From IMG/VR virus record IMGVR_UViG_2897328257_000003: a stretch of DNA of 64,000 bases. The stretch is one strand, 5' to 3'. Both the position numbers and the translations under genes were made by a program. Positions 1-60,591 of the stretch are shown one piece after another (positions within the stretch are counted from its first letter, which is position 1; the number at the start of each line of letters is the position of its first letter). The notes under the pieces were generated by a model. It had not been told where the DNA came from, ran no database searches, and was given only the letters and a program-made list of their open reading frames with translations. Source of the stretch: a virus. Taxonomy: Duplodnaviria > Heunggongvirae > Uroviricota > Caudoviricetes.

Positions 1-1119
1 TTAAATAACCAACTTAACCCATTCCTGACCTCGGGTATCGTTATAGCGATCGGTGGTAGCCTGGACTTTATGTCCCAGTAATGTTTTTGTATCGACACCC
101 TGTGCGCGGTACAACCGTTCTGACAGGGAGCGTTGTTCATGAAATGTTGGCGGTGTTTTTCCTGCTGGTGGAATTATTCCAGCCAGATCTCGCGCTTTGG
201 CGAAGTAATCGCTCAGGTTGTCTTTACTCATCGGTTTTGGTTGTTTCTGGTGCCTACTATGGATTAGGTATGGACTCAACATTCTGTCCCTGCATCCATC
301 AATAACTTCTTTTAACGATACCCCAATTTCATCGCATCGTAGCGTAAGAGGTAAGGCCAGACGCATTCCGGTTTTTCCTTGGGTTATATGTAGATGTCCA
401 TTCCATACATCTGAAAAACGCATGTGGCAAATGTCATCACGGCGCTGACCAGTAACAATCGCAAGAAGCATTGCGTTACGGATAAAGTGTTTTTCTGGCG
501 TTGCATTATAAATTTTTTGCCAGTCTTCCAGGGTGAGTCTGGATCTGGTCACTTTAGGGATCGGTTTACGGGTAGCCTCCGGAGGATTCCATCCAGGAGG
601 AACTTCTCCCGCATGCTGTGCTTCTTTATAAATATCAACCCATAATCCGCGATTTACTCTTGCTGTGCTGACCATGTCTTTATCCATCCACTCGTCCAGT
701 ATTAATGCAAAGTCTCTTACCTCCAGTTCTTTCAATGGGTGGTTTCCCAGGCGGGAAACCAGGTATGCAGCCATTCGCACTTTTTCTTTGTGGGTTGTAG
801 CTGCAATGTCTCCATTTTTCAGTCGCGAATCCTGTATTTTCAGATATCGATCAACCCATGCCTTTAATCTGATACCCCGACGTTTTGTTGCTGACGGACT
901 TTCATCAATTTTGCGCATGAAATATTCAGCTTCTGCTGCAGCTATTCGCTGATTGGCTGTGGAAGCGATTTTTTCTGCCTTACCTTTGTCTGTTCCGAGT
1001 CCGTGAAATTTTCCAGTCACAGGATTTTTATACTGGTAGTAAACTCTGCCAGTTCTGCGATCAAACTTTTCGTAAAGACCGGCTACGTCAGTGCTGTTTT
1101 TTCGTGGCCTCGGTGACAT
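1..1119 (-). CDS. int: Tyrosine recombinase, lambda-type prophage integrase
   Basis: 372-aa ORF; C-terminal region (..PTFHEQRSLSERLY..LLGHKVQATTDRYNDTRGQEW..) parallels the lambda Int catalytic C-terminus as recalled; followed by an xis-like gene overlapping its start. Confidence 0.9.
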   Translation of the reverse strand: MSPRPRKNSTDVAGLYEKFDRRTGRVYYQYKNPVTGKFHGLGTDKGKAEKIASTANQRIAAAEAEYFMRKIDESPSATKRRGIRLKAWVDRYLKIQDSRLKNGDIAATTHKEKVRMAAYLVSRLGNHPLKELEVRDFALILDEWMDKDMVSTARVNRGLWVDIYKEAQHAGEVPPGWNPPEATRKPIPKVTRSRLTLEDWQKIYNATPEKHFIRNAMLLAIVTGQRRDDICHMRFSDVWNGHLHITQGKTGMRLALPLTLRCDEIGVSLKEVIDGCRDRMLSPYLIHSRHQKQPKPMSKDNLSDYFAKARDLAGIIPPAGKTPPTFHEQRSLSERLYRAQGVDTKTLLGHKVQATTDRYNDTRGQEWVKLVI

Positions 1120-1366
1120 GAGTTAAAATCTCCTTCAGTGCATCATCATCGCCAGTATGAATTTCCGGCGCAATTCCCGTTTCACCAGGCCCAACAAATA
1201 CTGCTCGGCGATCTATCAGCCAACGCCCACGAATTTTTTGTGGTCTTGGAACGATGTATCCTAGTTTTCCGTATTTCACCAGGGTAGTGTTTGTTATTGG
1301 GAGACTGAACCGTTTTGGTTTCCACTCATCGAGCGTTATCAGGTACTGTTCGCTCATGGCTATCAC
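1088..1366 (-). CDS. xis: Excisionase-like protein (Xis family); start may be the internal Met at 1357
   Basis: 92-aa ORF overlapping the int start in another frame; N-terminus MSEQYLITLDEW resembles lambda Xis YLTLQEW. Confidence 0.6.
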   Translation of the reverse strand: MIAMSEQYLITLDEWKPKRFSLPITNTTLVKYGKLGYIVPRPQKIRGRWLIDRRAVFVGPGETGIAPEIHTGDDDALKEILTHVTEATKKQH

Positions 1367-1418
1367 TCCGGAACGCGCCAGTTGCAGAATACCAACGACA
1401 ACTGGCGACGGTTGAACA

Positions 1419-3863
1419 TTAAAAATCAGCCTGACTCGGGATCAGTTTTTGCCAGATAGCTGAAACGTATTTTGCCTGGTAACGCGCATCGTGCAGGGCA
1501 TTATGGCGCTCACCCTCAAATGTGATGACACTTCGAGCATCGAAATCCATCACCAGTCCCAGAGCAACCATCGTTCTTACATCGCGATCATTGGTGTAAC
1601 GCCATGGGCAGGGGATCCCCTGCCGTTCATATGAACGGCGTAAAATTACGTTGTCAAAGTTGGCTCCATTTCCCCAGACCTGAACAAAAAATTCACCGGA
1701 GTTTTCGTCGATAAATTCCCGTAATTGCAACAGTGCGTCATCCAACGGGATTTCATCGGTCAGAATGGCTGATTGTGCTTCCCGTGACTGTTTCAGCCAC
1801 CACTTAATGGTGTCCCGATCGATGACTCCGCCCGCGGTTTCCAGATCGATAGTTTTGCTGAATTCTGGCCCCATCTCTCCGGTTGCCGGATCAAAAAACT
1901 TACCGGCCAGAGCGTTTATTGGCGCATCAGGATTTTTGCCCATTGTTTCAAGGTCAATCATCAGATGGTGCCACAACCTGCTGGTGGATGTGCTTTCGTG
2001 ATGACCGTTCACCTTAATTAAGGGATTTGCTGTCTCGCCTGTTTCATTATTGCCATTGGCATGTTGATCGCCTTCGGTACACTCCTTGTTCGGGTATACG
2101 GCACTTTCCATTTCCTCTGGATCTTTCTCCCGGGCTTCATCCTGGCTTTCTTCGTTGAATGTTTCCTGGTATGTTGCGTCGCCCATTACCGCGCCACAGT
2201 CAGGACAGTTGCCGTCGCCGGTCTGACCGCAGGCGTTGCAGACTTTTTCCGGTTCTTGTTGCTCTTCTGGTTCAGGCTGTTTCGTTTCTGGCTCGTTTTG
2301 TAACGCATTTGGGCTGTTTTGTTCCGCTTTCTGGTCGTTTTGTTCCGATTTGTGCTGGTTCTGGTTCACAGAGTCGCGGGTTTCAATCCCCTTCACCCAT
2401 TTCGGATCATTCGGGTCGCTAATCCCTTCAACAAATTCTCCGTGAGAAGCAGCCAGTAATTTATCTGCATCGACAGGATTTTTGGGGGGAATGTTTTTCC
2501 TGGCTTCATGGAGTTCTGCACGCAGTTTCTGATATTTCGCATCAACAGAATTTATCTGTGGCTGAGCATCCATCGACTGCGTGTCCTGATTATGTTCAGT
2601 TGTATCCGGTTCCACTGCTTCAGTCGTTGCCTGTTCATCTGCCATTGCGCCAGTTGGCTGCGGTTTTTCTTCATCATCCTGTTTTCCTTCTTTTGTTACA
2701 CGCTGCGGCATTGGAGCAGAGGAGCGACCGCAGGCAATATCCACGATTTCTGGATCAGGGTTGGCATGGTCGGTTTCGGTCAGTACTTTGTTCAGATATT
2801 CGGTAACACGGTGGGGAGTAGCCTCGATACCAATTGGTGCTTCTTTCACGGACGCAACCACTATCGCGCGGGAATAATCCAGGTGACCAGGCATGGCGAT
2901 GAATTTGTCACGAAAAACAGAAAAGGGCGGCTTATTCTCTGAAACGATTTCTTCAATGCGTTTGGCGTGTGCCGGATGTGGATTGTAAATATCGATGTCC
3001 ATTGAACGGGCCAGAACGCCAGCGGCAACGTCACGTTCCACTGACGCATCATCGTGGACAAAACCTTCACCGCGATCGGTAAGAATTCCTCCGCCAGCAT
3101 TAGCGCCGGATGGCGTGCGGCTGATGCGTAAAACACGATTTCCTTTCATCCACTCTTTTGTCAGCAGACCTCGATCGGTATAGTCAGCGTCCAGGTATGC
3201 TTCGAAAAAAGCAGTCATTAACCCCAGACTGGAATTAACGGGATTAGGGAAAACTTTGTCTGTGTCGCGTACCAGTTTGTGAAGGTCGCGAATCTCCAGC
3301 GGGTCGAGCAGCTTTGTGTTGTGGGAAATAGCCAGGGCAGTAACAGCAGGCAGTTCTTCAGCTCGTGCGATATGTAATGCCTGAAGTTCTTCCCGTGAAA
3401 CGTGCGTTACCGGTTTTTCGCTGCCATGTTGCGCAAGCCAGCGAATGGGCAGTTCCTGACCGGAAATCGGCAGGAGCATATTATCCTCAATCTCAGCCAT
3501 GTCTTCGCCATTGACGTTGGTATTGTCAGAGCTGGCTGGTTTGTCCTGAACTGAGGGGGAAGGCGCTATAAATATCATTGTGATGCCATCTTCCCCGCCT
3601 TTTTCATAGCGGTTGCAGAATTCAGTATCGAACACACCTTCAGGCGGCAGGTCATTAACAATGGGCAAATTCACGCGAACAGGTTTTTTGAAATCCTCTT
3701 CGTCAAATCCAGCATCGTCCATTGCGACAACACCCCGTGATATTGCAACCGATAATTTTTTTGCTGTGCGCCAGTAAAAACCGCCTTTAATCCCAAGGCG
3801 TTTTCTGACTTTGTCATTTTTGGCTTCGTAATACAGTGCAATTTCTTCTTTATCAGTGCTCAT
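1419..3863 (-). CDS. Prophage exonuclease (814 aa) with central acidic/Gln-rich low-complexity region, Cys4 zinc-ribbon (CNACG..CPDCG) and C-terminal DEDD-type 3'-5' exonuclease-like domain; resembles proteins annotated as exodeoxyribonuclease VIII-like in E. coli prophages
   Basis: Long uninterrupted ORF in the early-left position next to xis; C-terminal motifs (..MIDLETMG.., ..HNALHDARY..) match DnaQ-like exonuclease signatures by eye. Confidence 0.7.
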
Positions 3864-3955
3864 TGATAAACCTCATAACTATTTTAAGGTTGTACGAATC
3901 CCTGCCATTGCTGGCATGCTTAATCAACGGGTATGGCGTTAATACGGCTGGCGGG

Positions 3956-4144
3956 TTATCCAGCCGGTATTTCGTTATTCAGGTACAGCGATACTTTGTT
4001 TAACGGGAGACATTCACCGGAAATTTTTTGCTCGTCTCTTGCCTGATGGCAGGATTCTTTACTGGCATAAATTCCGGTAATCACATTCTGTGGCTCACCT
4101 GTTATAAGAAAAACCGTCATCATCAGTGCAAACGCTGAACTCAC
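3956..4144 (-). CDS. Hypothetical small early-left protein (62 aa, hydrophobic N-terminus)
   Basis: ORF on the same strand directly upstream of the exonuclease gene; no recognised family. Confidence 0.4.
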   Translation of the reverse strand: MSSAFALMMTVFLITGEPQNVITGIYASKESCHQARDEQKISGECLPLNKVSLYLNNEIPAG

Positions 4145-4329
4145 TGCTGCCCTCCGAAAATGCCAAGTTCAAGAAGGGCAATTCTGGAGAGTATGGAATT
4201 ATCATTGAGAAGATAAGGCTCATATTTTCTCATCCTGATGGCGTCCTCAGTAAACTCCCGGTTACTGAGCAGAATACCAATATTAAAACACCCTTCAGAC
4301 GTATTAACGTTTGGTAGTGACGTTTCCAT
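4141..4329 (-). CDS. Hypothetical small early-left protein (62 aa)
   Basis: ORF with a 4-nt overlap to the downstream small ORF; start lies inside a sequence duplicated across an N-run, so the exact 5' context is uncertain. Confidence 0.35.
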   Translation of the reverse strand: METSLPNVNTSEGCFNIGILLSNREFTEDAIRMRKYEPYLLNDNSILSRIALLELGIFGGQQ

Positions 4330-4527
4330 TATCGCGTCCTCAACAATGAATTTTGTGATGTGGTGCCTGGTGCCTCCAGGTGACGTTAACCAGTTAACAA
4401 TTAACGCCGGANNNNNNNNNNNACGTTTGGTAGTGACGTTTCCATTATCGCGTCCTCAACAATGAATTTTGTGATGTGGTGCCTGGTGCCTCCAGGTGAC
4501 GTTAACCAGTTAACAATTAACGCCGGA
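4307..4527. repeat. Exact ~105-bp direct duplication flanking a ~10-nt N-run (approx. 4412-4422); probable contig-join artefact
   Basis: Sequence acgtttggtagtgacgtttccattatcgcg...ttaacgccgga occurs identically on both sides of the N-run. Confidence 0.6.
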
Positions 4528-4997
4528 TTGTTAGTTGATGTCTGTTACGCCAGTAAAAGACCGCTTGTTTTAACTGTTCCGCGTGCGCTTAGCCGCATTC
4601 ACCGCATCACAAAATACACTTTAAAAATGGCGGATATCCATTTCCGCCGAATCACCAGAAAAGTGATAACAGAGGTTGTTGTGGCGGTGTTGTCACTCAG
4701 GCGTATGGTCAACCTGACAACCCGGTGCATTTTCTGGAGCAATGGAGGAAGCCCCAGCCATACTTACCGCCGCGCCATTTCGCGGATTGCCACAACCGGA
4801 AGCGCACGATCGAATTACATTTAACGACGACATATACAGAGAGACTAACTTCGCCGAGCGCTTTCGTGTTGTGTGCCTGCTTTTAACCACGTCAGGCGAG
4901 GTGGACCTGTTATTCCCCAACAACAAGGAGCTTGTTAATCTGGATATCCCCAACAACAATAAGAGTATTGAATGTGATCGCTGAATTAACGGCAGCA

Positions 4998-5489
4998 ATG
5001 ACGGCTATTCGTGAAACCGCTCAGATTACAAAACTAATGAACGAGGCAAAAACTCAAGCTGAAGTAAATGCGGCTATTGGTGAACTGAACTCAAAGCTTG
5101 CATCTATTCAGCACGAATGCGTGTCTCTCGTTGAGCTGGTGAGCACTTATCAAGAAATAAATGCTTCTCTCAAAGCTAAAATTGCAGAATTTGAAAACTT
5201 TGAGGCTCAGACGGAAGGTTATATCCTTAACCAACTTGAGTCGGGAACTTTTGTGTACTCGAAGGAGGTAACCGTGAACGGCGGCAGCATAATCATGCAT
5301 CTTTGTCCAAAATGTTTTGGACAAAAGATAGTATCGATACTTCAACCATTCCCGGTTAGAGAACATGAGTTTTTTCATAAAAGCAGGTGCCTCTACTGTG
5401 AAAATCAGTTTCTTATGAATAAAAATCCGGATTATGTATCGCCTCCATCTATTGAGGAGTTGGCCAGAAAACTGAACGGCAATCTGTAG
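4998..5489 (+). CDS. Hypothetical moron protein: N-terminal coiled-coil-like region plus C-terminal Cys4 zinc-ribbon (CPKC ... CLYC); alternative starts GTG 4974 or internal GTG 5274
   Basis: ORF on the strand opposite to the early-left genes, AT-rich relative to flanks, preceded by ~470 bp of non-coding DNA; internal in-frame AAGGAGGT (5262-5269) plus GTG (5274). Confidence 0.55.
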   Translation: MTAIRETAQITKLMNEAKTQAEVNAAIGELNSKLASIQHECVSLVELVSTYQEINASLKAKIAEFENFEAQTEGYILNQLESGTFVYSKEVTVNGGSIIMHLCPKCFGQKIVSILQPFPVREHEFFHKSRCLYCENQFLMNKNPDYVSPPSIEELARKLNGNL

Positions 5490-5602
5490 ATTGTTACTGT
5501 TATGGATATCCAGATTGTTAAAGAGCATGCCGGATGCTTGCTTGTGTCCGGCGCGTGTGCACCAGTTCTCCCCGTGGAGGATTCCTTAACTACCAGACTT
5601 CA

Positions 5603-5755
5603 TTAGTCAGAGTTTCTTGCTAACCAGCGACGCGCGCCAGCTTCAGTTTTAAACGTTTTGCTTCTGGTATACGTCATCGCGGTAAACGTGCCGTCCTGGT
5701 TGGGGAATACTCCGCATACCAGAGATTCGTTGTTGCCAAGATTGAGCGTATCCAT
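5603..5755 (-). CDS. Small protein (50 aa), YdaF/DUF1391-like as recalled
   Basis: Hand-translated ORF MDTLNLGNNESLVCGVFPNQDGTFTAMTYTRSKTFKTEAGARRWLARNSD; below the ORF-track size cut-off; position downstream of the repressor matches the Rac ydaF/ydaG locus. Confidence 0.45.
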   Translation of the reverse strand: MDTLNLGNNESLVCGVFPNQDGTFTAMTYTRSKTFKTEAGARRWLARNSD

Positions 5756-5791
5756 GTTGACCTCATTTGCCCTTAACGCCGGGTCGCGGAA

Positions 5792-6016
5792 CTAAAAACC
5801 TGCTGCGCTGTTATACAAAGTGTTCCCGCCGTCATGTTCATACGCCTCGGGCTGGCTACTTAACCCCTGACCACTGCCTGGTAACTCGAAGTATTGCCTG
5901 GCGTTCTGTGGGGCGGGGTGGGTTGGTGATATAATGTACCTGCTGTTCATTAATGTAAAGTACTTTTGGTACATTTTTGTGAGGGGTAAAATATCAGGAG
6001 GGGATGAGAGGAGCAT
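5792..6016 (-). CDS. Hypothetical ORF (74 aa) downstream of the repressor; weak RBS, may be non-coding
   Basis: ORF only; no recognisable Shine-Dalgarno sequence; no family recognised. Confidence 0.25.
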   Translation of the reverse strand: MLLSSPPDILPLTKMYQKYFTLMNSRYIISPTHPAPQNARQYFELPGSGQGLSSQPEAYEHDGGNTLYNSAAGF

Positions 6017-6050
6017 AAACCCGGAGGGAAGCTACCGGATTTATGCAGAT

Positions 6051-6470
6051 TCAGGAGGCTTTTTGTTTTTTCTTTCGCGCTAATTCTTCATAAATTGCGT
6101 TGTACTTCTGTTTTTTCTCCTCAAGAGTTTTTAAAAGTTCATCAGTTTCACTGTCAGGGAGTTCATCAAGAAGTTCAATGATGATTTTTTGCTTCGGACT
6201 TAACTCCTGATAGAAACGCAGGCTTCCGCTTTCTTCAGTGTCCTCCCCCAGAAGGTAAGTTGGTGTTGTTCCGATAAGTGCTGCCAATTCTTTCAGTTTC
6301 TCTCGACGGGGAATTGCCTCTCCATTAAACCATTTACTAACCGCTTTGGGTGTTAGCTTCATTCGACGGGCAATTTCTGCCTGCCTTCCGTGTTGTTCAA
6401 AGCCAGCATTTTCACAGGCTAGCGCAAGCCTGCTGGCGAACTCTTTACGCGCTTCATCTTCATGAACCAT
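6051..6470 (-). CDS. Prophage repressor, XRE-family HTH, DicA/RacR-like
   Basis: 139 aa; N-terminal HTH (..QAEIARRMKLTPKAVSKWFNGEAIP..) and C-terminal ..LSPKQKIIIELLDELPDSETDELL.. closely parallel DicA as recalled; divergent from a cro-position gene. Confidence 0.85.
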   Translation of the reverse strand: MVHEDEARKEFASRLALACENAGFEQHGRQAEIARRMKLTPKAVSKWFNGEAIPRREKLKELAALIGTTPTYLLGEDTEESGSLRFYQELSPKQKIIIELLDELPDSETDELLKTLEEKKQKYNAIYEELARKKKQKAS

Positions 6471-6549
6471 AAGTTCAATGATATTTGCTATTGAATGTAC
6501 TGTCAGTTCTGTTATATTGTGTACTCAAAGTTCACATTGTGAGGGTGAT
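6471..6549. promoter_or_regulatory. Divergent promoter/operator region of the immunity switch (repressor vs cro-like gene)
   Basis: 79-bp AT-rich intergenic region between divergent start codons, with repeated TGTAC-containing half-sites (..aatgtactgtcag..tgtgtactcaa..). Confidence 0.5.
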
Positions 6550-6816
6550 ATGAGCCATACAACACTTGCAGATGTAATCAAAGCAGTTCGCGTTTCTGTT
6601 GTAGCCGATGTTTGCGGTGTCAGCCAAAGAGCAATCTACAAATGGATGAATAATGGAAAATTACCGCGCACAGAATATACAGGCGAAACAAATTACGCTG
6701 AAAAAATTGCTCTGGCATCAAACGGATTATTTTCTGCTGATGCGGTTTTGACTATTGGCAGGATTAAGCCTACAGCGAATGAATCACTGGCGGTGAACAA
6801 TGAAAATCACCCCTGA
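6550..6816 (+). CDS. Cro-position HTH protein, YdaS/DicC-like
   Basis: 88 aa from ATG 6550 preceded by GAGGG; HTH-like ..VADVCGVSQRAIYKWMNNGKLP..; divergent from the repressor. Confidence 0.7.
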   Translation: MSHTTLADVIKAVRVSVVADVCGVSQRAIYKWMNNGKLPRTEYTGETNYAEKIALASNGLFSADAVLTIGRIKPTANESLAVNNENHP

Positions 6817-7351
6817 ACAGGTTTGTGAGGCTCTGGATGCCTGGGTATGCCGACCAGGAATGACACAGGAGCAGGCGACGATATTAATCACGGAAGCATT
6901 CTGGGCTCTGAAAGAACGCCCGAACATCGATGTTCAACGCGTCACGTTTAATGATGGCGAGGTTGATCAACGGGCGCTGGGCGTTAATCGAGTGAAGATA
7001 TTCGAACGCTGGAAGGCTATCGACACCAGGGATAAGCGTGAAAAATTCACGGCGCTGATTCCGGCAATTATGGAGGCTATCCGGGTAAGTGATTTCAGGT
7101 TGTATTGTGAAATTACTGACGGAAAAAGCATTACGTACATGATCGCCGGGTTAAACAAAGAGTATGGCGATGTGGTGGAGTCCGGGCTGCTTTTTGCGGA
7201 TCCAGTTGTTGTGGAACGTGAGACTGATGAGCTTATAGAAAAAGCCATTGCTTTCAAGCGTGCGTATCGTCAGCAATACCAACATTACTTTGCAGATAAA
7301 CAAATATCTGTCTGGGGTTCGTATGAGTATCGATGCACTACGATGGGCTAA
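6800..7351 (+). CDS. YdaT-like protein (Rac ydaT family as recalled; proposed CII-analogue/toxic protein)
   Basis: 183 aa overlapping the end of the ydaS-like gene; segment ..DKREKFTALIPAIMEAIRVSDFRLYCEITD.. resembles YdaT. Confidence 0.6.
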   Translation: MKITPEQVCEALDAWVCRPGMTQEQATILITEAFWALKERPNIDVQRVTFNDGEVDQRALGVNRVKIFERWKAIDTRDKREKFTALIPAIMEAIRVSDFRLYCEITDGKSITYMIAGLNKEYGDVVESGLLFADPVVVERETDELIEKAIAFKRAYRQQYQHYFADKQISVWGSYEYRCTTMG

Positions 7352-8360
7352 AAAGGTGAAAACCGGCAGTTCATCCAGTAAGTCAGTATTGACCTGGCTT
7401 GCTGATATGTGCGGTGCCGATTTGTGCGCATACCCGTCTATATCTGCACTGGCAGAAGTAACGGAACTGAACAAAAAGACTGTGCAGGACAGTTTACGAC
7501 ACCTGATGGAGATTGGGTTAATTGTTGATACTGGTGAGAGAAAAGGCAGAACAAAGCAAATTGTGGTGTACCGACTTATCGGTGTAGAAGAAAGTGTTGC
7601 CGAGCCTGAATACACCCAAAAACGGGAGTCTTTAAAGGTGGGTAAAATTGGTACTGTTAATAAAAATAGTACCGAAAATGGTTATGTTTCAGCACAAAAC
7701 AGACCCAAAAACGGAACTCTTAGCTGCATGGAAAATAACCAAAGACACCCAAATTTTCCATCAAAGACACCCAAAAACGGATCACGGAACCCAAAGGAAC
7801 CCAAAGATCTAAACCCCACACATAACGCACGCGAGAGTGCTCCGACCAGTGAGCAGGAAGTTTTGTCGTTACAGGCAGCGCCCCCTGTATTCTTGGATGG
7901 CCTGAGCGAACCCATCGGGAAATTTTCGATGACTACTGTCTGGCAGCCGTCGCTGGATTTTCGACAACGGGCAGTAGTGTGGGGTATGGCTCTGCCTGAG
8001 CCGGAATTTACACCTGCAGAGCTTGCCGCATTCCGGGATTACTGGATGGCGGAGGGGAAGGTTTTCACGCAGGTTCAGTGGGAGCAGAAATTTGCCCGTC
8101 ACGTGCAGCACGTCAGGGCACAGGTAAAACCAGTCAGCAAGGGGGTAAGCCATGCAGCATCAGGTGGCACGGCATCACGGGCAGTTCAGGAAATCCGGGC
8201 AGCACGCGAACAGTGGGAACGTGAAAACGGATTTATCAGCAACGGAAACGGCCTGGAAGCTGTGGGAGCTTATGGGGGAGGTGTATTCGAACCGCTGGAC
8301 TCAGAAGAATGGGGCCGCACCTTCGAAGCTCTGGATTGCCCAGATTGGTGCGATGACTGA
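7323..8360 (+). CDS. Replication initiation protein: N-terminal winged-helix DNA-binding domain, low-complexity linker, C-terminal DnaT-like domain
   Basis: C-terminal ..GKFSMTTVWQPSLDFRQRAVVWGMALPEPEFTPAELAAFRDYWMAEGKVFTQVQWEQKFAR.. closely parallels E. coli DnaT as recalled; iteron-like repeats inside the linker-coding DNA. Confidence 0.7.
   Translation: MSIDALRWAKKVKTGSSSSKSVLTWLADMCGADLCAYPSISALAEVTELNKKTVQDSLRHLMEIGLIVDTGERKGRTKQIVVYRLIGVEESVAEPEYTQKRESLKVGKIGTVNKNSTENGYVSAQNRPKNGTLSCMENNQRHPNFPSKTPKNGSRNPKEPKDLNPTHNARESAPTSEQEVLSLQAAPPVFLDGLSEPIGKFSMTTVWQPSLDFRQRAVVWGMALPEPEFTPAELAAFRDYWMAEGKVFTQVQWEQKFARHVQHVRAQVKPVSKGVSHAASGGTASRAVQEIRAAREQWERENGFISNGNGLEAVGAYGGGVFEPLDSEEWGRTFEALDCPDWCDD
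7650..7810. repeat. Putative prophage replication origin: AT-rich palindrome followed by iteron-like direct repeats inside the replication gene
   Basis: GGTACTgttaataaaaatAGTACC palindrome; repeats gacccaaaaacggaac (7702-7717) and cacccaaaaacggatc (7768-7783), agacaccca x2, ggaacccaaag x2; analogous to lambda ori within O. Confidence 0.45.
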
Positions 8361-8814
8361 ACAGCAAATCCGTCTGGTCTGCCGTCAGTGCATGGACCGC
8401 TGCCGGGCGGGTGAAACGTGGCCCCCGGACCTGGCTGAGTTTGTTGCGCTGATTTCGGAGAGTGGGGCAAATCCATTTGGTCTTACGGTGGATGCCGTGA
8501 TGGAAGAGTACCGGCGCTGGCGCAATGAATCCTGGCGATACGACGGGAGTGATAAATACCCGTGGCCACAGCCTGTGCTGTACCACATCTGCCTCGAAAT
8601 GCGTACCAGAGGGATTGAGCGCCAGATGACGCAGGGTGAGTTAAAACGACTTGCGGAACGGCAACTGACGAAATGGGCAAAGCATGTTGGTAACGGGATG
8701 AGTGTTCCGCCAGTGCGACGACAACTGGAAGGGGCGAAACACCCGAAAGGGCCAACGCCAATTGAACGGCTGAAACAGGAATACGAACGCCGGAAGGCTG
8801 CTGGTTTTATTTGA
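8152..8814 (+). CDS. Lambda P-like replication protein (DnaB helicase loader family)
   Basis: 220 aa; strong RBS AAGGGGG before ATG 8152; ..TWPPDLAEFVAL.. and ..YPWPQPVLYHICLEMRTRGIERQMTQGELKRLAERQL.. parallel lambda P; overlaps the previous ORF by ~209 nt in another frame. Confidence 0.7.
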   Translation: MQHQVARHHGQFRKSGQHANSGNVKTDLSATETAWKLWELMGEVYSNRWTQKNGAAPSKLWIAQIGAMTEQQIRLVCRQCMDRCRAGETWPPDLAEFVALISESGANPFGLTVDAVMEEYRRWRNESWRYDGSDKYPWPQPVLYHICLEMRTRGIERQMTQGELKRLAERQLTKWAKHVGNGMSVPPVRRQLEGAKHPKGPTPIERLKQEYERRKAAGFI

Positions 8815-8847
8815 ATCTGGGAAACGATTTTGTCGGAGGAAATTTTA

Positions 8848-9564
8848 ATGGAAACCGTATTTGACGCACTGAAAGCACTGAAAAGAGCCTCTTCACAGGT
8901 AGTGGCGGCCCGCCTTGGAATCAGCCGTGAAGATGCGGTCAACGAACTGTGGAAACTGAAGCGCCGTGGTGAAGCGGATAACAAGGGGTCGATGTGGTGG
9001 CTGACTCAGGCAGGTGAAAGTGAACCAGTGTCACCGGTACCGAAAGTGACAGCGCAAATGCTGACTGAGGCGATTGAACAACATGGCCCACAAACGGCGG
9101 ATGAGCTGGCACTTATGTTCGGGATTACCTCCCGCCGGGCGAATTCATCGCTGGCCATGGCAATCAGCAAAGGGCGTCTGATTCGCGTAAATCAGGGCGG
9201 TAAATTTCGTTACTGCATACCGGGCGCTGATTTACCGGCAGAGCCGGAAGCTGCATCCGTAGCGGAAACCGATGGTAAAGCCTTTCCTCAGCCAGCAGGT
9301 GTTGCGTTACCAGTCCAGGAAACGACGACACAGGAAGAAATGAAAACAGAAATCGTGGAAGACATTGTGAAGTTACAGCCATCGGTCACCGAAACGAAAG
9401 CAGATAACCTGATTCTACCATCGCTGCATGTGGCTAACCGCGAGCTGCGCCGGGCAAAAGGTCAGGTTCAGAAGTGGGAGCGAGTCTGCGCCGCGCTGCG
9501 GGAGCTGAACAAGTGCCGGGATATTCTCTGGGATATTACCGCCACCAGAGAACAGCAGCGGTGA
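8848..9564 (+). CDS. Hypothetical prophage protein with two winged-helix-like segments (DUF1627-like as recalled)
   Basis: ATG 8848 preceded by GGAGGA at good spacing; ORF track places an upstream TTG at 8830. Confidence 0.55.
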
Positions 9565-9878
9565 GTGGGTGGAAGACGTGGTGCCGGGCTGAAATTCTGA
9601 TACTCCGGCAGTGCGCGGGAACAATGAAGGTAAAAAGCATTGGCGCACTTATCGGACGAACTGAAGCGGCAGTGAGAACGAAGGCACGGGAGTTGGGCAT
9701 CAGCATGATGTTACGTGGTGATTTTCACCCGTCGGCAAAATATTCTCAGCGTGATATTGAGCTGGCGCGGCAACTGCATCAGAGAGGCATGCAAAGAAGG
9801 GAAATTGCCAGAAAATTAGGCATGCCGCTGCGCATAGTGAATAACTACGTTTATTTCGACAGGAGGGTTCAGGCGTGA
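9561..9878 (+). CDS. Small DNA-binding protein with GcrA-like N-terminal HTH and a second sigma-70 region-4-like HTH
   Basis: GTG start overlapping the upstream stop (GTGA); pattern W..E.L....G.....I...+G.T.AV..K...LG resembles the GcrA N-terminus. Confidence 0.45.
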
Positions 9879-10180
9879 GGGTGAGCATTTATATCGCCGG
9901 TCCAATGACGGGATATGAAAATTTCAACCGCGAGGCGTTTCACAGGGCGGAAGAAGCACTGAAACGGGAAGGGCATACCGTTTTAAACCCGGCAGTACTT
10001 CCGGACGGGCTGACTCAGCCGCAGTACATGGATATTTGCATGGCAATGATTCGTTGTGTGGATGCGGTTTATATGCTGAAAGGCTGGCAGCGATCGGCAG
10101 GCGCTAAGGCAGAACTGGCACTGGCGGAGAAACTGGGACATGCGGTTATTTTCCAGGAGGCAACCAGTGAGCGAAATTAA
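9875..10180 (+). CDS. DUF4406-like protein (nucleoside 2-deoxyribosyltransferase-like fold family)
   Basis: 101 aa; GTG start after AGGAGGG with overlapped upstream stop; N-terminal ..VSIYIAGPMTGYENFNREAF.. is the characteristic motif as recalled. Confidence 0.65.
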   Translation: MRVSIYIAGPMTGYENFNREAFHRAEEALKREGHTVLNPAVLPDGLTQPQYMDICMAMIRCVDAVYMLKGWQRSAGAKAELALAEKLGHAVIFQEATSERN

Positions 10181-10329
10181 TTACCAGGAGCTACGGCAGG
10201 TGAAAGAGAAAGCATAATCCAGATCTGAATAATTAAAATCAGCACTGTAAATAAAATTTAATCCTTAACCGGAGGGATTTCTGCACCCTCAGAACATCAG
10301 GAGACCGCCAGAAAGGGCGGTAATGAAAA

Positions 10330-10698
10330 ATGACTGAATTAACAAAAGAGCAATTAATCAAAGAAGCCAAATTAAAAATAGCGGTTGCGAAATGTTACCC
10401 TAATTCAGAGATGGCCAGGGTAGAGGGAGAGCTATTCAAAATTGCACTGGCATCGCTGGAGGCGGTTCCGGTGGCATGGCTGCATTCAGACAATGGCCTG
10501 GGTATTCCAGCAATAACCAGGAGTAAAAACGTTGCTGATAGTTGGTTATCAAAGGGCTGGTATGTTCAGCCGTTATATGTAGCCCAACCTGTACCGGTGG
10601 TGCCGGATGCTCGTCCATCTTTAAATAATGGCATTGTCGGATTTGATGAAGGCTGGAATGCCTGCCGGGATGCCATGCTTAATGGAGATAAATCATGA
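10330..10698 (+). CDS. Hypothetical protein (122 aa), first gene of a coupled three-gene module; C-terminal ..EGWNACRDAML.. motif
   Basis: ORF after a 150-bp AT-rich intergenic region with promoter-like sequence and a hairpin just before the start; stop overlaps the next start (ATGA). Confidence 0.6.
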   Translation: MTELTKEQLIKEAKLKIAVAKCYPNSEMARVEGELFKIALASLEAVPVAWLHSDNGLGIPAITRSKNVADSWLSKGWYVQPLYVAQPVPVVPDARPSLNNGIVGFDEGWNACRDAMLNGDKS

Positions 10699-11396
10699 TT
10701 AATCGTATCAAACTGGAGCACATCCTCGAATATGCCGGGCAGCAGAGGCATATTGGTCAGCATTGTAAAATTCCACCAGGAGATATGGTTGAAATCATGG
10801 AGATTGCCATGCGCAAGGCTGGCAACCCTCCGGTAACTCCGGGGCGTTTGCCTGGCGGTTTCACCATTGAGGAGGCGAAGGAGTTACATGAAGACCTGGT
10901 GCGCAGCCACATAAGCAAGGCTTTAAGTGGCGAAAAGATGAAGAAGAAGGATCTCGATGCTGATTTGCGCTGGATCCATGGGGTTATAGTCCAGGCCGCC
11001 TGGTTTGTAAAAGCATCACTGGAGCAGAATGTGCTAACGGGTAACTCTCAGGTAATCCCTGATGACGGTCGCGAACAGTTTGAAACACTTATCAGGTTCC
11101 ATGCAGATGATAAAAACCATGAAACATTATTGCTTCGTGCTAACGAAGGGATGAATTACCGGGATCCAAATGTGGATTTGGCATGGATATTCTGGAAATC
11201 CAGTCGAGAGCACATATTGCCTGGAAAAAGCGACAATAATCCAGCATCAGGCGATCAGGTAAGTGAATTAACAATGTGGGTGAAGCGGTTATCTCATTCC
11301 TTAAAAAGCGTTAATAAATCAAGCAAACTACCGGATAAAGCGATGGACTACCTGAAGCGAAACGGACTGATAAACGAGGAGAATATTTTACGATGA
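10695..11396 (+). CDS. Hypothetical protein (233 aa), second gene of the coupled module
   Basis: ATGA overlaps with both neighbours; no recognised domain. Confidence 0.6.
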   Translation: MINRIKLEHILEYAGQQRHIGQHCKIPPGDMVEIMEIAMRKAGNPPVTPGRLPGGFTIEEAKELHEDLVRSHISKALSGEKMKKKDLDADLRWIHGVIVQAAWFVKASLEQNVLTGNSQVIPDDGREQFETLIRFHADDKNHETLLLRANEGMNYRDPNVDLAWIFWKSSREHILPGKSDNNPASGDQVSELTMWVKRLSHSLKSVNKSSKLPDKAMDYLKRNGLINEENILR

Positions 11397-11476
11397 CCTG
11401 GCCTGAAGCGTTCATAACGGTAGGAATTGCAATGGCGGTGGCGCTGGTGGTGTATTCGATTTGCCGCTGGGGATAA
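11393..11476 (+). CDS. Putative 27-aa hydrophobic (single transmembrane-like) peptide, third gene of the module
   Basis: Hand-translated MTWPEAFITVGIAMAVALVVYSICRWG; start overlaps the upstream stop (ATGA); below ORF-track cut-off. Confidence 0.3.
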   Translation: MTWPEAFITVGIAMAVALVVYSICRWG

Positions 11477-11538
11477 AAACGGTTTGCGGGGAAAGAAGAG
11501 TTAAGTAGAATTGCTGCGGGTGCTTGAGGCTGTCTGCC

Positions 11539-54943: not shown

Positions 54944-56173
54944 ATGGATAAACTACTTGAGCGATTTTTGAACTACGTGTCTCTGGATACCCAATCAAAA
55001 GCAGGGGTGAGACAGGTTCCCAGCACGGAAGGCCAATGGAAGTTATTGCATCTGCTGAAAGAGCAGCTCGAAGAGATGGGGCTTATCAATGTGACCTTAA
55101 GTGAGAAGGGCACTTTGATGGCGACGTTACCGGCTAACGTCCCTGGCGATATCCCGGCGATTGGCTTTATTTCTCATGTGGATACCTCACCGGATTGCAG
55201 CGGCAAAAATGTGAATCCGCAAATTGTTGAAAACTATCGCGGTGGCGATATTGCGCTGGGTATCGGCGATGAAGTTTTATCACCGGTTATGTTCCCGGTG
55301 CTGCATCAGCTACTGGGTCAGACGCTGATTACTACCGATGGTAAAACCTTGTTAGGTGCCGATGACAAAGCCGGTATTGCAGAAATCATGACCGCGCTGG
55401 CGGTATTGCAACAGAAAAACATTCCGCATGGTGATATTCGCGTCGCCTTTACCCCGGATGAAGAAGTGGGCAAAGGGGCGAAACATTTTGATGTTGATGC
55501 CTTCGATGCCCGCTGGGCTTACACTGTTGACGGTGGTGGCGTAGGTGAACTGGAGTTTGAAAACTTCAACGCCGCATCGGTCAATATCAAAATTGTCGGT
55601 AACAATGTTCATCCGGGCACGGCGAAAGGAGTGATGGTAAATGCGCTGTCGCTGGCGGCACGTATTCATGCGGAAGTTCCGGCGGATGAAAGCCCGGAAA
55701 TGACAGAAGGCTATGAAGGTTTCTATCACCTGGCGAGCATGAAAGGCACCGTTGACCGAGCCGATATGCACTACATCATCCGTGATTTCGACCGTAAACA
55801 GTTTGAAGCGCGTAAACGTAAAATGATGGAGATCGCCAAAAAAGTGGGCAAAGGGTTACATCCTGATTGCTACATTGAACTGGTGATTGAAGACAGTTAC
55901 TACAATATGCGCGAGAAAGTGGTTGAGCATCCGCATATTATCGATATCGCCCAGCAGGCGATGCGTGACTGCGATATTGAACCGGAACTGAAACCGATCC
56001 GCGGCGGTACCGACGGCGCGCAGTTGTCGTTTATGGGATTACCGTGCCCGAACCTGTTCACTGGCGGTTACAACTATCATGGTAAGCATGAGTTTGTGAC
56101 TCTGGAAGGTATGGAAAAAGCGGTGCAGGTGATTGTCCGTATTGCCGAGTTAACGGCGCAACGGAAGTCGTGA
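54944..56173 (+). CDS. pepT: Peptidase T (tripeptide aminopeptidase)
   Basis: Begins [19 protein letters not shown] (internal Met of the track ORF 54902..56173); M20-family metal-binding motifs; conserved position next to potA. Confidence 0.95.
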
Positions 56174-58918: not shown

Positions 58919-59144
58919 TTTTTTTCGTGTTTTTTCAGTATGCGCATACTGGATAAGTGCACAGATACAACGTGAAACAATGTGCAACAACGTGACANNN
59001 NNNNNNNNATACTGGCGGGAACACATGAAAACGTAACCACGCTACCAGTAACCAGAATAAAATAATTTTTTTCGTGTTTTTTCAGTATGCGCATACTGGA
59101 TAAGTGCACAGATACAACGTGAAACAATGTGCAACAACGTGACA
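58862..59144. repeat. Exact ~136-bp direct duplication flanking a ~10-nt N-run (approx. 58998-59008); probable contig-join artefact
   Basis: atactggcgggaacacatgaaaacg...caacaacgtgaca occurs identically before and after the N-run; first copy includes the integrase 3' end. Confidence 0.6.
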
Positions 59145-59968: not shown

Positions 59969-60591
59969 NNNNNNNNNNNNNNNNNNNNNNNNNNNNNNNN
60001 NNNNNNNNNNNNNNNNNNNNNNNNNNNNNNNNNNNNNNNNNNNNNNNNNNNNNNNNNNNNNNNNNNNNNNNNNNNNNNNNNNNNNNNNNNNNNNNNNNNN
60101 NNNNNNNNNNNNNNNNNNNNNNNNNNNNNNNNNNNNNNNNNNNNNNNNNNNNNNNNNNNNNNNNNNNNNNNNNNNNNNNNNNNNNNNNNNNNNNNNNNNN
60201 NNNNNNNNNNNNNNNNNNNNNNNNNNNNNNNNNNNNNNNNNNNNNNNNNNNNNNNNNNNNNNNNNNNNNNNNNNNNNNNNNNNNNNNNNNNNNNNNNNNN
60301 NNNNNNNNNNNNNNNNNNNNNNNNNNNNNNNNNNNNNNNNNNNNNNNNNNNNNNNNNNNNNNNNNNNNNNNNNNNNNNNNNNNNNNNNNNNNNNNNNNNN
60401 NNNNNNNNNNNNNNNNNNNNNNNNNNNNNNNNNNNNNNNNNNNNNNNNNNNNNNNNNNNNNNNNNNNNNNNNNNNNNNNNNNNNNNNNNNNNNNNNNNNN
60501 NNNNNNNNNNNNNNNNNNNNNNNNNNNNNNNNNNNNNNNNNNNNNNNNNNNNNNNNNNNNNNNNNNNNNNNNNNNNNNNNNNNNNNNNNNN
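59969..60591. other. Unresolved sequence: 623-nt run of N inside the satellite element
   Basis: Contiguous n characters. Confidence 1.

Follow-up and report, generated by a model that had tools for sequence, protein, structure and literature searches.

The immunity region of phage HK022, grouped with that of HK75, is the closest described system to the locus analyzed here, and the HK022 repressor CI binds its OR and OL operators cooperatively, with looping between them (PMC8053113). The DicA repressor of the Qin prophage recognizes the operator Oc (TTGTTAG-N6-CTAACAA; PMC3441716) and is relieved by the antirepressor Rem (PMC10448788). In Rac (RacR/YdaS/YdaT) and CP-933P (PaaR2/YdaS/YdaT), the genes follow the order repressor, divergent Cro analogue, YdaT and replication genes, and YdaS and YdaT of both prophages act as Cro and CII analogues rather than as a toxin-antitoxin pair (PMC8630535, PMC9986795, PMC11879457). 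YdaT consists of a POU-like N-terminal domain and, after it, a long C-terminal helix through which it tetramerizes (PDB 8bt1); residues R57 and W58 of Rac YdaT, in recognition helix α3, have been linked to DNA binding and fold (PMC11879457).

The locus lies in a stretch of 64,000 nucleotides of viral DNA, referred to as a whole as the window, in which a run of N occupies positions 11539-52025 (63% of the window). The immunity repressor (6051-6470, minus strand; 139 aa) comprises a helix-turn-helix domain (aa 1-76, nt 6243-6470) and a tail (aa 77-139, nt 6054-6242). Across an intergenic gap of exactly 79 bp (6471-6549), it faces a Cro analogue (6550-6816, plus strand), an all-alpha helix-turn-helix protein of 88 aa whose gene is preceded by the ribosome-binding site GAGGGTGAT. 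The CII position is taken by a YdaT-family gene (6800-7351, plus strand; 183 aa) that overlaps the Cro-like ORF by 17 bp and is in turn overlapped by 29 bp by the first gene past the switch, which encodes a replication initiator with a DnaT-like domain (7323-8360, plus strand; Pfam DnaT, E 3e-16; phrog_1032, a replication-initiation family). The leftward operon begins with a DUF1391 gene (5603-5755, minus strand) encoding a YdfA/YdaF homologue (PF07151, E 5e-30; 88% identity to YdfA), and dicB is also among the visible genes there. The four coordinates are also those given by PGAP (NCBI) in a genome with 100% identity to window positions 5500-7500. The layout described in the initial annotation, a repressor facing a cro-position gene across 79 bp with an overlapping YdaT-like gene beyond it, is thus confirmed by both ORF coordinates and PGAP calls, and its view of the region as a lambdoid-type immunity region is supported. 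The region is the ordinary lysis-lysogeny control of an E. coli lambdoid prophage, assembled from known parts; with a probability of about 80%, we read it as a switch built from three exchangeable modules, namely an HK022-type specificity cassette, a DicA-type tail and a Qin-type YdaT.

The operators provide much of the evidence for the first of these modules, which takes in OL, OR, Cro and the repressor's DNA-binding domain. Repeats of TGTAC in the gap had been suggested as possible operators, and the two copies there (6496-6500 and 6520-6524) are indeed half-sites of HK022-type dyads. By itself TGTAC is not enriched, with 29 matches in the window versus 30.3 expected; the 13-bp dyad GWACY-N3-RGTWC, which contains it and is a pattern derived post hoc from these same sites, has four exact matches, all within 5960-6533, versus 0.19 expected, and none of 100 shuffles reached four. 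OR3 (6463-6477, TGAACCATAAGTTCA), an exact match to the motif, covers the repressor start codon (6468-6470) and has the same sequence as HK022 oR3, which likewise covers the cI start codon. OR2 (6496-6510, TGTACTGTCAGTTCT; HK022 oR2 is TGTACTATCAGTTCC) lies 33 bp from OR3 in the spacer of the PR-like promoter, and OR1 (6520-6534, TGTACTCAAAGTTCA) is found 24 bp from OR2, just downstream of the PR -10 hexamer. On the left side, OL2 (5935-5949, TGTACCTGCTGTTCA) fits the 15-bp dyad TGWAC-N5-GTWCA and overlaps the PL -10 hexamer, while OL1 (5959-5973, AGTACTTTTGGTACA), an exact match to GWACY-N3-RGTWC, abuts the PL -35 hexamer 24 bp from OL2; their HK022 counterparts are the oL sites TGTACTTAAAGTTCA and AGTACCAATAGTACA, respectively.

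These sites coincide with those annotated in the HK022 record (X16093.1), which has the same dyad, TGWAC-N5-GTWCA, an identical oR3, spacings of 33/24/24 bp, a 79-bp gap, and PR and PL hexamers likewise placed. At the DNA level, the likeness to HK022 is restricted to two islands, one at window positions 6310-6645 (71%) and one at 5930-5977 (81%). Raoultella and Salmonella loci with a homologous repressor and Cro have this motif at homologous positions, likewise as three OR and two OL sites at unchanged spacing, and the OL pair with its 24-bp spacing is found in loci L007 and L009; Rac, Qin and a PPompW phage of DicA type lack the layout. In the phages Tritos and 666R9, the half-sites are free of substitutions, which are confined to spacers or to the stretches between sites: OR2 is invariant, OL2 keeps its outer half-sites around a variable spacer, and the sole change in OR1 among relatives lies in the spacer. 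The motif scan revealed neither a third OL site nor an OFR site. A search for the HK75 putL and putR sites (blastn-short against window positions 5400-7600) returned only chance matches of at most 11 nt, with no Rfam match, and no nun gene is annotated in the identical copy of the region.

Promoters were predicted by consensus scanning. The PL-like promoter (5931-5959, minus strand; -35 TTTACA at 5959-5954, -10 CATTAT at 5936-5931) falls exactly on the annotated pL -35 and -10 hexamers of X16093.1 when the OL regions are aligned, and the hexamers of the PR-like promoter (6491-6518, plus strand; -35 TTGAAT at 6491-6496, -10 TATATT at 6513-6518) coincide with the annotated pR hexamers of HK022 in an ungapped alignment. 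A candidate PRM (6478-6506, minus strand; -35 CTGACA at 6506-6501, -10 TATCAT at 6483-6478; scan score 10/12) has its predicted start at or next to the repressor ATG and would yield a leaderless mRNA; no Shine-Dalgarno sequence is present upstream of this ATG. OR2 overlaps the whole of this predicted promoter's -35 hexamer, an arrangement not suggestive of lambda-style activation. A candidate PRE-like reverse promoter is proposed inside the cro-like gene (6726-6754, minus strand; TAGTCA-17-AATAAT; scan score 9/12), the analogues being PracR4 in Rac and PRE in CP-933P (PMC11879457, PMC8630535). The leftward leader RNA (170 nt; 5756-5925, minus strand) shows no unusual stability (z = +1.1), and Rfam at gathering thresholds gave no match in the readable part of the window, DicF included.

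The repressor's DNA-binding domain belongs with the operators. Residues 1-75 are 59% identical to HK022 CI (E 8e-32), with the helix 3 region, PKA(V/I)SKWFNGE, almost identical between the two proteins, versus 29% identity to the N-terminal domain of DicA. Beyond this domain the relationship is different: whereas HK022 CI bears an S24 C-terminal domain, the repressor has no Peptidase_S24 domain (HTH_3 is its only Pfam match) and ends in a tail of some 55-60 aa that has no similarity to the HK022 CI C-terminal domain and is 34% identical over 47 aa to the DicA tail (LSPK..LL-L...LP-SE.D). Relatives whose N-terminal domains are about 70% identical carry the S24 domain, and alignment with such S24-bearing relatives places the domain joint after residue ~76, where a different short tail begins. 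The repressor had been described as closer to DicA and RacR than to lambda CI. This holds to the extent that it is a short helix-turn-helix protein with a DicA-like tail and no peptidase domain, but its identity to DicA is 30% over 112 aa, the BLASTP alignment with RacR covers 33 aa of the helix-turn-helix (36% identity, E 1e-4), and the nearest DNA-binding domain is that of HK022 CI, a lambda-CI-type, S24-bearing repressor. RacR is unrelated to it beyond the helix-turn-helix, and the two share no PHROG.

The cro-position protein also follows HK022. Over 71 aa it shares 61% identity with HK022 Cro (E 4e-33), and its family profile matches the solved Cro proteins 5w8y and 3bd1. When an AF2 model (pLDDT 73.8) was used as a Foldseek query, the top match was Xfaso 1 Cro (probability 1.0; TM-score of 0.70 when normalised by target length), with CP-933P YdaS (8c7k) in ninth place (probability 0.85); all matches had E values above 0.001. 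The initial annotation had assigned a YdaS-like helix-turn-helix protein to this position; the helix-turn-helix protein is there, but as a homologue of HK022 Cro whose link to YdaS is remote. No PF15943 (YdaS) match was obtained at E <= 0.01 (gathering threshold, 30 bits), versus 107.7 bits for Rac YdaS, and BLAST found no match between the two proteins. They do both match phrog_35, 11 of the 20 members of the Cro analogue's family match PF15943, and hhalign paired the Cro analogue with Rac YdaS at a probability of 84% (E 7.5e-6); the protein would be at best a remote YdaS relative.

These comparisons bear on the idea of a strict Rac/Qin-type switch, with a DicA or RacR orthologue acting on DicA- or RacR-like operators and a YdaS or DicC orthologue at the cro position. 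Such a reading could draw on the DicA-like tail, on a weak match to the NCBIfam DicA model that spans most of the protein (NF007257; aa 29-137, 56.7 bits, E 2e-15) and on the Qin-like flanking genes (ydfA-like, dicB and full-length ydfX), but we consider it very improbable. The DicA score stays below the model's cut-off of 101 bits, and the likeness to RacR extends over 33 aa. Oc is absent near the locus at up to three mismatches (its single match in the window, at 55349, lies in host DNA and is at chance level); Pfam gives no YdaS match; and DicC is not homologous to the Cro analogue except for the last six residues, whose codons lie in the 5' flank of the ydaT module. In DNA-binding domain, operators and Cro, HK022 is far closer. 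The "Rac/Qin type" label is half correct: operators, promoters, spacing, DNA-binding domain and Cro follow HK022, and within the repressor the tail alone is DicA-like.

The YdaT-like assignment itself was borne out: the protein scores 26.0 bits against PF06254 (gathering threshold, 21) and matches phrog_163 (E 4.7e-41), the PHROG to which YdaT of Rac and YdfX of Qin both belong. Identity to YdfX is 90% over 93 aa. Qin ydfX shows the same 17-bp overlap with its upstream gene but is truncated to 96 aa compared with 183 aa here; the gene of this locus is its full-length form. YdaT of Rac and CP-933P belongs to the same Pfam family and shares ~30-45% identity over the N-terminal domain. Alignment with Rac YdaT by hhalign (probability 95.2%, E 2.5e-8) was accompanied by conservation of the recognition-helix Arg-Trp pair, R70/W71 being invariant in the family alignment and aligned with R57/W58 of Rac YdaT. 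A search of PDB sequences returned 8bt1 and 3c4r (E 0.05-0.08 with the single sequence, ~1e-3 by profile). The AF2 model of the protein, built from an 11-sequence alignment, is poor (pLDDT 48.7) and insufficient for a fold search, with a long helix predicted at 135-181. A candidate YdaT box (6792-6811, GGTGAACAATGAAAATCACC; dyad GGTGA-N10-TCACC) straddles the start codon of the ydaT-like gene, begins at the mosaic joint, and shares its register relative to the ATG with the Rac YdaT box ATGATTcatgaaAATCAA; its symmetry is partial and weaker still in the Qin and PPompW copies. No site fitting the published YdaT box (TTGATT-N6-AATCAA) was found in 6400-7400 at up to three mismatches.

The initial annotation mentioned a debate over the toxin-antitoxin status of such genes, which experiments have since decided in favour of Cro and CII analogues (PMC8630535, PMC9986795, PMC11879457). 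A toxin-antitoxin or toxin-repressor pair made up of the cro-like and ydaT-like genes and controlled by the upstream repressor is hardly credible and already largely refuted. The notion survives in the Pfam names YdaS_toxin and YdaT_toxin and in the PGAP product name "toxin YdaT family protein", and derepression of Rac ydaS and ydaT is lethal (PMC5700377, PMC5700373). Nevertheless, the work on CP-933P and Rac shows these proteins to be DNA-binding regulators, an argument from genetic context points the same way (PMC5917428), and the cro-position protein here is a homologue of HK022 Cro. Moreover, the two genes are not co-inherited: the cro-like gene moves along with the repressor and operators, and exchange of the ydaT-like gene occurs independently of them.

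This independent exchange is visible in the relatives. In L007 and L009, unrelated genes adjoin the same repressor-cro cassette, and in PPompW phages the same YdaT gene accompanies DicA/DicC. In the phages Tritos, vB_EcoS-666R9, -673R7 and -613R10, the repressor is ~93% and Cro 79% identical and the operator half-sites are identical, but the YdaT proteins, of 140-141 aa, are of the CP-933P type in Tritos and of the Rac type in 666R9, and the flanking arms and replication genes differ. HK022 itself differs in having a lambda-type cII where the YdaT-family gene lies here. DicA of Qin is likewise short and without an autocleavage domain, its tail is homologous, and in Qin, too, a ydfA-like gene and dicB lie in the leftward operon. 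Colinearity of the window with NZ_CP075640.1 is confined to window positions 4423-11538. Of 5426 complete E. coli genomes, 1047 carry the cassette, and many of these are of Shiga-toxin-producing strains; it is also present in deposited phage genomes.

The Qin-like operon, with dicB and the DUF1391 gene, would also suit a domesticated remnant, in which the module keeps host-toxic early genes (dicB, the ydaT-like gene and replication genes) silent in a prophage that no longer makes phage, as DicA does in Qin or RacR in Rac. A repressor without an SOS-cleavable domain is in keeping with this, as are the frameshifted portal and tail-tip J genes in the prophage of a genome that shares window positions 4423-11538 at 99.96%. 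In the window itself the late region, on which the full-size appearance noted in the initial annotation would bear, falls in the run of N. We nonetheless consider it unlikely that this describes the locus. The ~93% identical repressor and identical half-sites occur in genomes deposited as phages (Tritos, 666R9, 673R7 and 613R10); the three regulator genes, five operators and replication genes are intact, in contrast to the truncated ydfX of Qin; and the flanks point to insertion of a ~52-kb element between potC and potB. Domestication, furthermore, concerns the state of the prophage and not the mechanism of the module, and is compatible with a lambdoid switch built from three exchangeable modules.

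The data presented above lead us to propose a model for this three-module switch. In the lysogen, the repressor would bind the 15-bp TGWAC-N5-GTWCA dyads at the three OR and two OL sites, silencing PR, and with it the cro-like, ydaT-like and replication genes, as well as PL, with the DUF1391 gene and dicB among its visible genes; the overlap of OR3 with the repressor start codon would permit negative autoregulation. Cro made from PR would bind the same operators and stop repressor synthesis. The YdaT-like protein, translated from the PR transcript, would act as a CII analogue, binding at or near its own start codon and activating the reverse promoter within the cro-like gene, so that repressor synthesis is established. 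As the S24 domain has been replaced by a DicA-type tail, RecA-stimulated self-cleavage of the repressor is probably excluded and induction would proceed by another route, most likely through an antirepressor, as Rem acts on DicA, or through stochastic switching of a bistable circuit. The DicA-type tail may be the surface recognized by Rem-like antirepressors. PHROG scans of a few early-region ORFs identified no antirepressor (two of the six queries of one scan were void, falling in the run of N), and the region where Qin has rem is N-masked. An ORF at the rem position in NZ_CP075640.1 was considered as an antirepressor; it bears no resemblance to Rem by eye, and it was dropped because a similarly placed ORF of the same length occurs in a prophage of a different immunity type. 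The readable part of the window contains no exact match to the LexA box CTGT-N8-ACAG.

The cassette is a known kind of switch and holds nothing surprising for the specialist. The locus does, however, illustrate mosaicism clearly, and on three levels: inside the repressor gene, between DNA-binding domain and tail; between the immunity cassette and the gene at the CII position; and between the cassette and the prophage arms. It also bears on annotation. A CII-like lysogeny regulator is the best reading of the "toxin YdaT family protein"; the two proteins labelled "helix-turn-helix" are an HK022-type repressor and a Cro, and the truncated ydfX of Qin is a remnant of the same YdaT type. An induction route that is probably not RecA-mediated cleavage is relevant to the response of such prophages to antibiotics. 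Tentatively, and with somewhat less than an even chance of being right, we suggest that the repressor is a natural domain-swap chimera, in which HK022-type operator specificity has been combined with a tail of DicA type that replaces the S24 domain for autocleavage and cooperativity; close relatives that have the same operators and a DNA-binding domain about 70% identical retain the S24 domain. If the chimera is functional, one operator code would serve two induction modes, SOS-triggered self-cleavage and antirepressor-driven or stochastic switching, and a prophage carrying the chimera could confer dominant, non-SOS-inducible immunity against S24-type phages that share its operators.

The control region reproduced exactly the layout described in the initial annotation. 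A 139-aa repressor ORF (6051-6470, minus strand; PGAP 'helix-turn-helix domain-containing protein') is separated by a 79-bp gap (6471-6549) from an 88-aa Cro-like ORF (6550-6816, plus strand; PGAP 'helix-turn-helix transcriptional regulator') with GAGGGTGAT just upstream, and this is overlapped by 17 bp by a 183-aa YdaT-like ORF (6800-7351, plus strand; PGAP 'toxin YdaT family protein'). A replication gene (PGAP 'DnaT-like ssDNA-binding domain-containing protein') begins at 7323, before the 183-aa ORF has ended. The PGAP annotation of a genome that matches window 5500-7500 at 100% identity contains the same set of genes. Database entries often extend the Cro-like gene to an ATG at 6478, yielding 108-112 aa (for example P0076, P0092 and the annotation of phage Tritos). 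This ATG falls within the −10 hexamer proposed for the repressor promoter and precedes predicted PR. Since the extension would therefore cross operators OR2 (6496-6510) and OR1 (6520-6534), the 6478 start is almost certainly a mis-call.

TGTAC repeats in the gap had been proposed as possible operators. Two copies are present, at 6496 and 6520; by itself the motif is not enriched (29 matches in the window against 30.3 expected), and the partner half-sites GTTCA (TGAAC on the other strand) had been overlooked. The full dyad, GWACY-N3-RGTWC, extending to TGWAC-N5-GTWCA, was derived from the window alone and after the fact, and was for that reason tested in three independent ways. It has four exact matches, all within 5960-6533, where 0.19 would be expected, and a fifth site with one mismatch at 5936. 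In the close relatives Tritos and 666R9, whose repressors are 93% identical, substitutions are confined to operator spacers or to positions between sites and never hit the half-sites. Two distant relatives, a Raoultella locus with an S24-type repressor and a Salmonella locus with a short-tail repressor 64% identical to that of the window, each carry a trio of sites between repressor and cro, at spacings of 24 and 33 bp and with the last site covering the repressor ATG, as well as an additional pair 24 bp apart further downstream. No dyad sites occur in Rac, Qin or a DicA-type PPompW phage. The control region of the window lacks the DicA operator Oc, TTGTTAG-N6-CTAACAA (PMC3441716). In the GenBank record of coliphage HK022 (X16093.1), the annotated oR3, oR2, oR1 and two oL sites share the consensus and the spacing of the window's sites; the oR3 sequence, TGAACCATAAGTTCA, recurs unchanged at window 6463-6477 (OR3), and the cI-cro gap is likewise 79 bp. 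By these three tests, the TGTAC repeats are real half-sites.

Promoter hexamers predicted by consensus scan, at 6491-6496 and 6513-6518 for PR and at 5954-5959 and 5931-5936 for PL (the −35 abutting OL1, 5959-5973, and the −10 overlapped by OL2, 5935-5949), coincide exactly with the annotated HK022 pR and pL hexamers. A candidate PRM on the minus strand (−35 at 6506-6501, −10 at 6483-6478) would initiate at the repressor ATG; OR3 would then cover the start site, and the mRNA would have no leader. OR2 overlies the −35 hexamer of this candidate, which does not point to lambda-style activation of the repressor gene by its product.

The repressor had been described as closely resembling DicA/RacR, which is not borne out: only its tail is DicA-like. 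It aligns to DicA with 30% identity over 112 aa (E 9e-16), but scores 56.7 bits with the NCBIfam DicA model, whose cut-off is 101, and its alignment to RacR is limited to 33 aa of the helix-turn-helix (E 1e-4). A Pfam search found only HTH_3 and HTH_31, with Peptidase_S24 absent. A database search identified S24-bearing relatives, 235-240-aa repressors of Raoultella and Trabulsiella, whose N-terminal ~80 residues are ~70% identical to the window repressor, and among phage genomes a sensitive DNA search picked out the cI-oR-cro region of coliphages HK022 and HK75. When the domains are compared one at a time, identity of the N-terminal domain is 59% with HK022 CI (E 8e-32) and 29% with DicA; over 47 aa the C-terminal 63 residues show 34% identity to the DicA tail, with no meaningful similarity to the HK022 S24 domain. 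The repressor is thus a chimera of an HK022-type DNA-binding domain and a DicA-type tail.

The protein in the cro position, initially called YdaS-like, aligns to HK022 Cro with 61% identity (E 4e-33), lacks a match to the Pfam YdaS family and gives nothing significant in BLAST against YdaS or DicC. What stands of the original assignment is at best a remote relation: the protein shares phrog_35 with YdaS, PF15943 matches 11 of the 20 members of its family, and hhalign probability is 84% against YdaS and 5% against DicC. The family profile matches the solved Cro proteins 5w8y and 3bd1. In a Foldseek search with the AF2 model (pLDDT 73.8), where no match reached E <= 0.001, the top match was Xfaso 1 Cro (probability 1.0, TM-score 0.70, target-length normalised) and CP-933P YdaS ranked ninth. 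The protein is an all-alpha-type Cro and at best a remote YdaS relative. The six C-terminal residues (NNENH) common to it and DicC derive from coding sequence in the 5' flank of the ydaT module, and this flank is the mosaic joint.

The overlapping gene was correctly recognized as YdaT-like: its product passes the PF06254 cut-off (26.0 bits against 21) and matches phrog_163, 'CII-like transcriptional activator' (E 4.7e-41), to which Rac YdaT and Qin YdfX also belong. YdfX is 90% identical to it across all 93 comparable residues and is thus a truncated copy of the window's gene; Qin ydfX shows the same 17-bp overlap with its upstream gene. With Rac YdaT, hhalign gives a probability of 95% over the N-terminal domain, aligning R70 and W71 with R57 and W58, residues that the Rac study ties to DNA binding and fold (PMC11879457). 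The CP-933P-type YdaT of Tritos is 35% identical over 96 aa (BLASTP, E 6e-9); the structure model of the window protein is poor. In published experiments, YdaT recognises an inverted repeat where its own gene begins and turns on a reverse promoter that serves the repressor gene (PMC8630535, PMC9986795, PMC11879457). The toxin-antitoxin status of ydaS/ydaT, described in the initial annotation as debated, has been settled by experiments showing that they are not such a pair (PMC8630535, PMC9986795, PMC11879457), and a genetic-context argument agrees (PMC5917428). The YdaT 'toxin' is a CII analogue. The Rac YdaT box straddles the ydaT ATG, and the window has GGTGAACAATGAAAATCACC (6792-6811) in the same register; this candidate box is a partial dyad that does not match TTGATT-N6-AATCAA, and an alternative is offered by the conserved direct repeat TGAACA-N14-TGAACA (6794-6819).

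Taken together, the best-supported reading is that the region would operate as a standard lambdoid bistable switch with HK022-type specificity. Because cooperativity and looping of lambda-type repressors reside in the C-terminal domain, both may differ in the window repressor from those of HK022 CI. HK022 CI binds its operators cooperatively and forms OL-OR loops (PMC8053113). The missing S24 domain would exclude RecA-stimulated cleavage as the induction route. For DicA, which has the same type of tail, the antirepressor Rem lifts repression and spontaneous switching occurs too (PMC10448788); antirepressors inactivate the short Gifsy repressors as well (PMC3121763). Neither an antirepressor nor a LexA box was found in the readable part of the window. 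A single N run at 11539-52025 (40,487 nt, ~63% of the window) makes the late prophage region unreadable, the hok locus and the position equivalent to Qin rem being masked as well; three shorter runs lie at 4412-4422, 58998-59008 and 59969-60591. Of the readable flanks, the left one carries an integrase and the right one potB, potA, pepT and roxA.

Comparison of related prophages showed that repressor, operators and Cro are co-inherited across loci, while the CII-position gene is exchanged independently. The Qin-type YdaT of the window also occurs in PPompW phages beside DicA and DicC; 666R9 carries a Rac-type and Tritos a CP-933P-type YdaT, and unrelated genes hold this position in the Raoultella and Salmonella loci. 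The RM10466 prophage, for which NZ_CP028381.1 1309057-1327158 was compared with window 1-11538, sits between potC and potB with arms ~97% identical to the window, and has a CP-933P-type immunity region comprising a presumably PaaR2-like helix-turn-helix gene in the repressor position, a RelE/ParE-RelB toxin-antitoxin pair, YdaS and a 141-aa YdaT, a clean cassette replacement relative to the window. The prophage at ompW in NZ_CP075640.1 matches the window only over 4423-11538, at 99.96% identity. The immunity region is therefore an exchangeable cassette. This ompW prophage, with the same immunity region, encodes an S6-family autotransporter peptidase, a YadA-like adhesin, an ompC-like porin and two hok/gef genes; PGAP reports its portal and tail-tip J genes as frameshifted.

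In the Raoultella and Salmonella relatives, cargo is found between the repressor gene and the OL pair, the classic lysogen-expressed 'moron' position: an AAA_15/AAA_21-type AAA-ATPase in the Raoultella locus (3808-5250 of that locus), and a HigB-toxin gene with an adjoining HTH_3 gene in the Salmonella locus (3553-4220 of that locus). On the leftward side, a ~24-nt invariant element, AGTTCCGCnACCCGGCGTTAAGGG (~5768-5792, minus strand), immediately precedes the leading gene of the leftward operon and is common to the window prophage, Qin (upstream of ydfA), Rac (upstream of ydaG), PPompW and RM10466, regardless of immunity type; the 170-nt leader around it shows no unusual stability (z = +1.1). 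A 185-aa ORF (4932-5489, plus strand; phrog_1244, function unknown), flanked by dicB and the DUF1391 gene and opposite in strand to the leftward operon, occupies the position of sieB in Rac and may be a lysogen-expressed exclusion gene.

Among 5426 complete E. coli genomes, 1047 carry the cassette, and it also occurs in deposited phage genomes; the finding is both genuine and ordinary, each component coming from a described family. The original classification as Rac/Qin type survives in the DicA-like tail and the Qin-type YdaT, but operators, repressor N-terminal domain and Cro are HK022-type. The analysis offers three useful corrections: the specificity is of HK022 rather than Rac/Qin type, the repressor is chimeric, and the YdaT 'toxin' is an analogue of CII.
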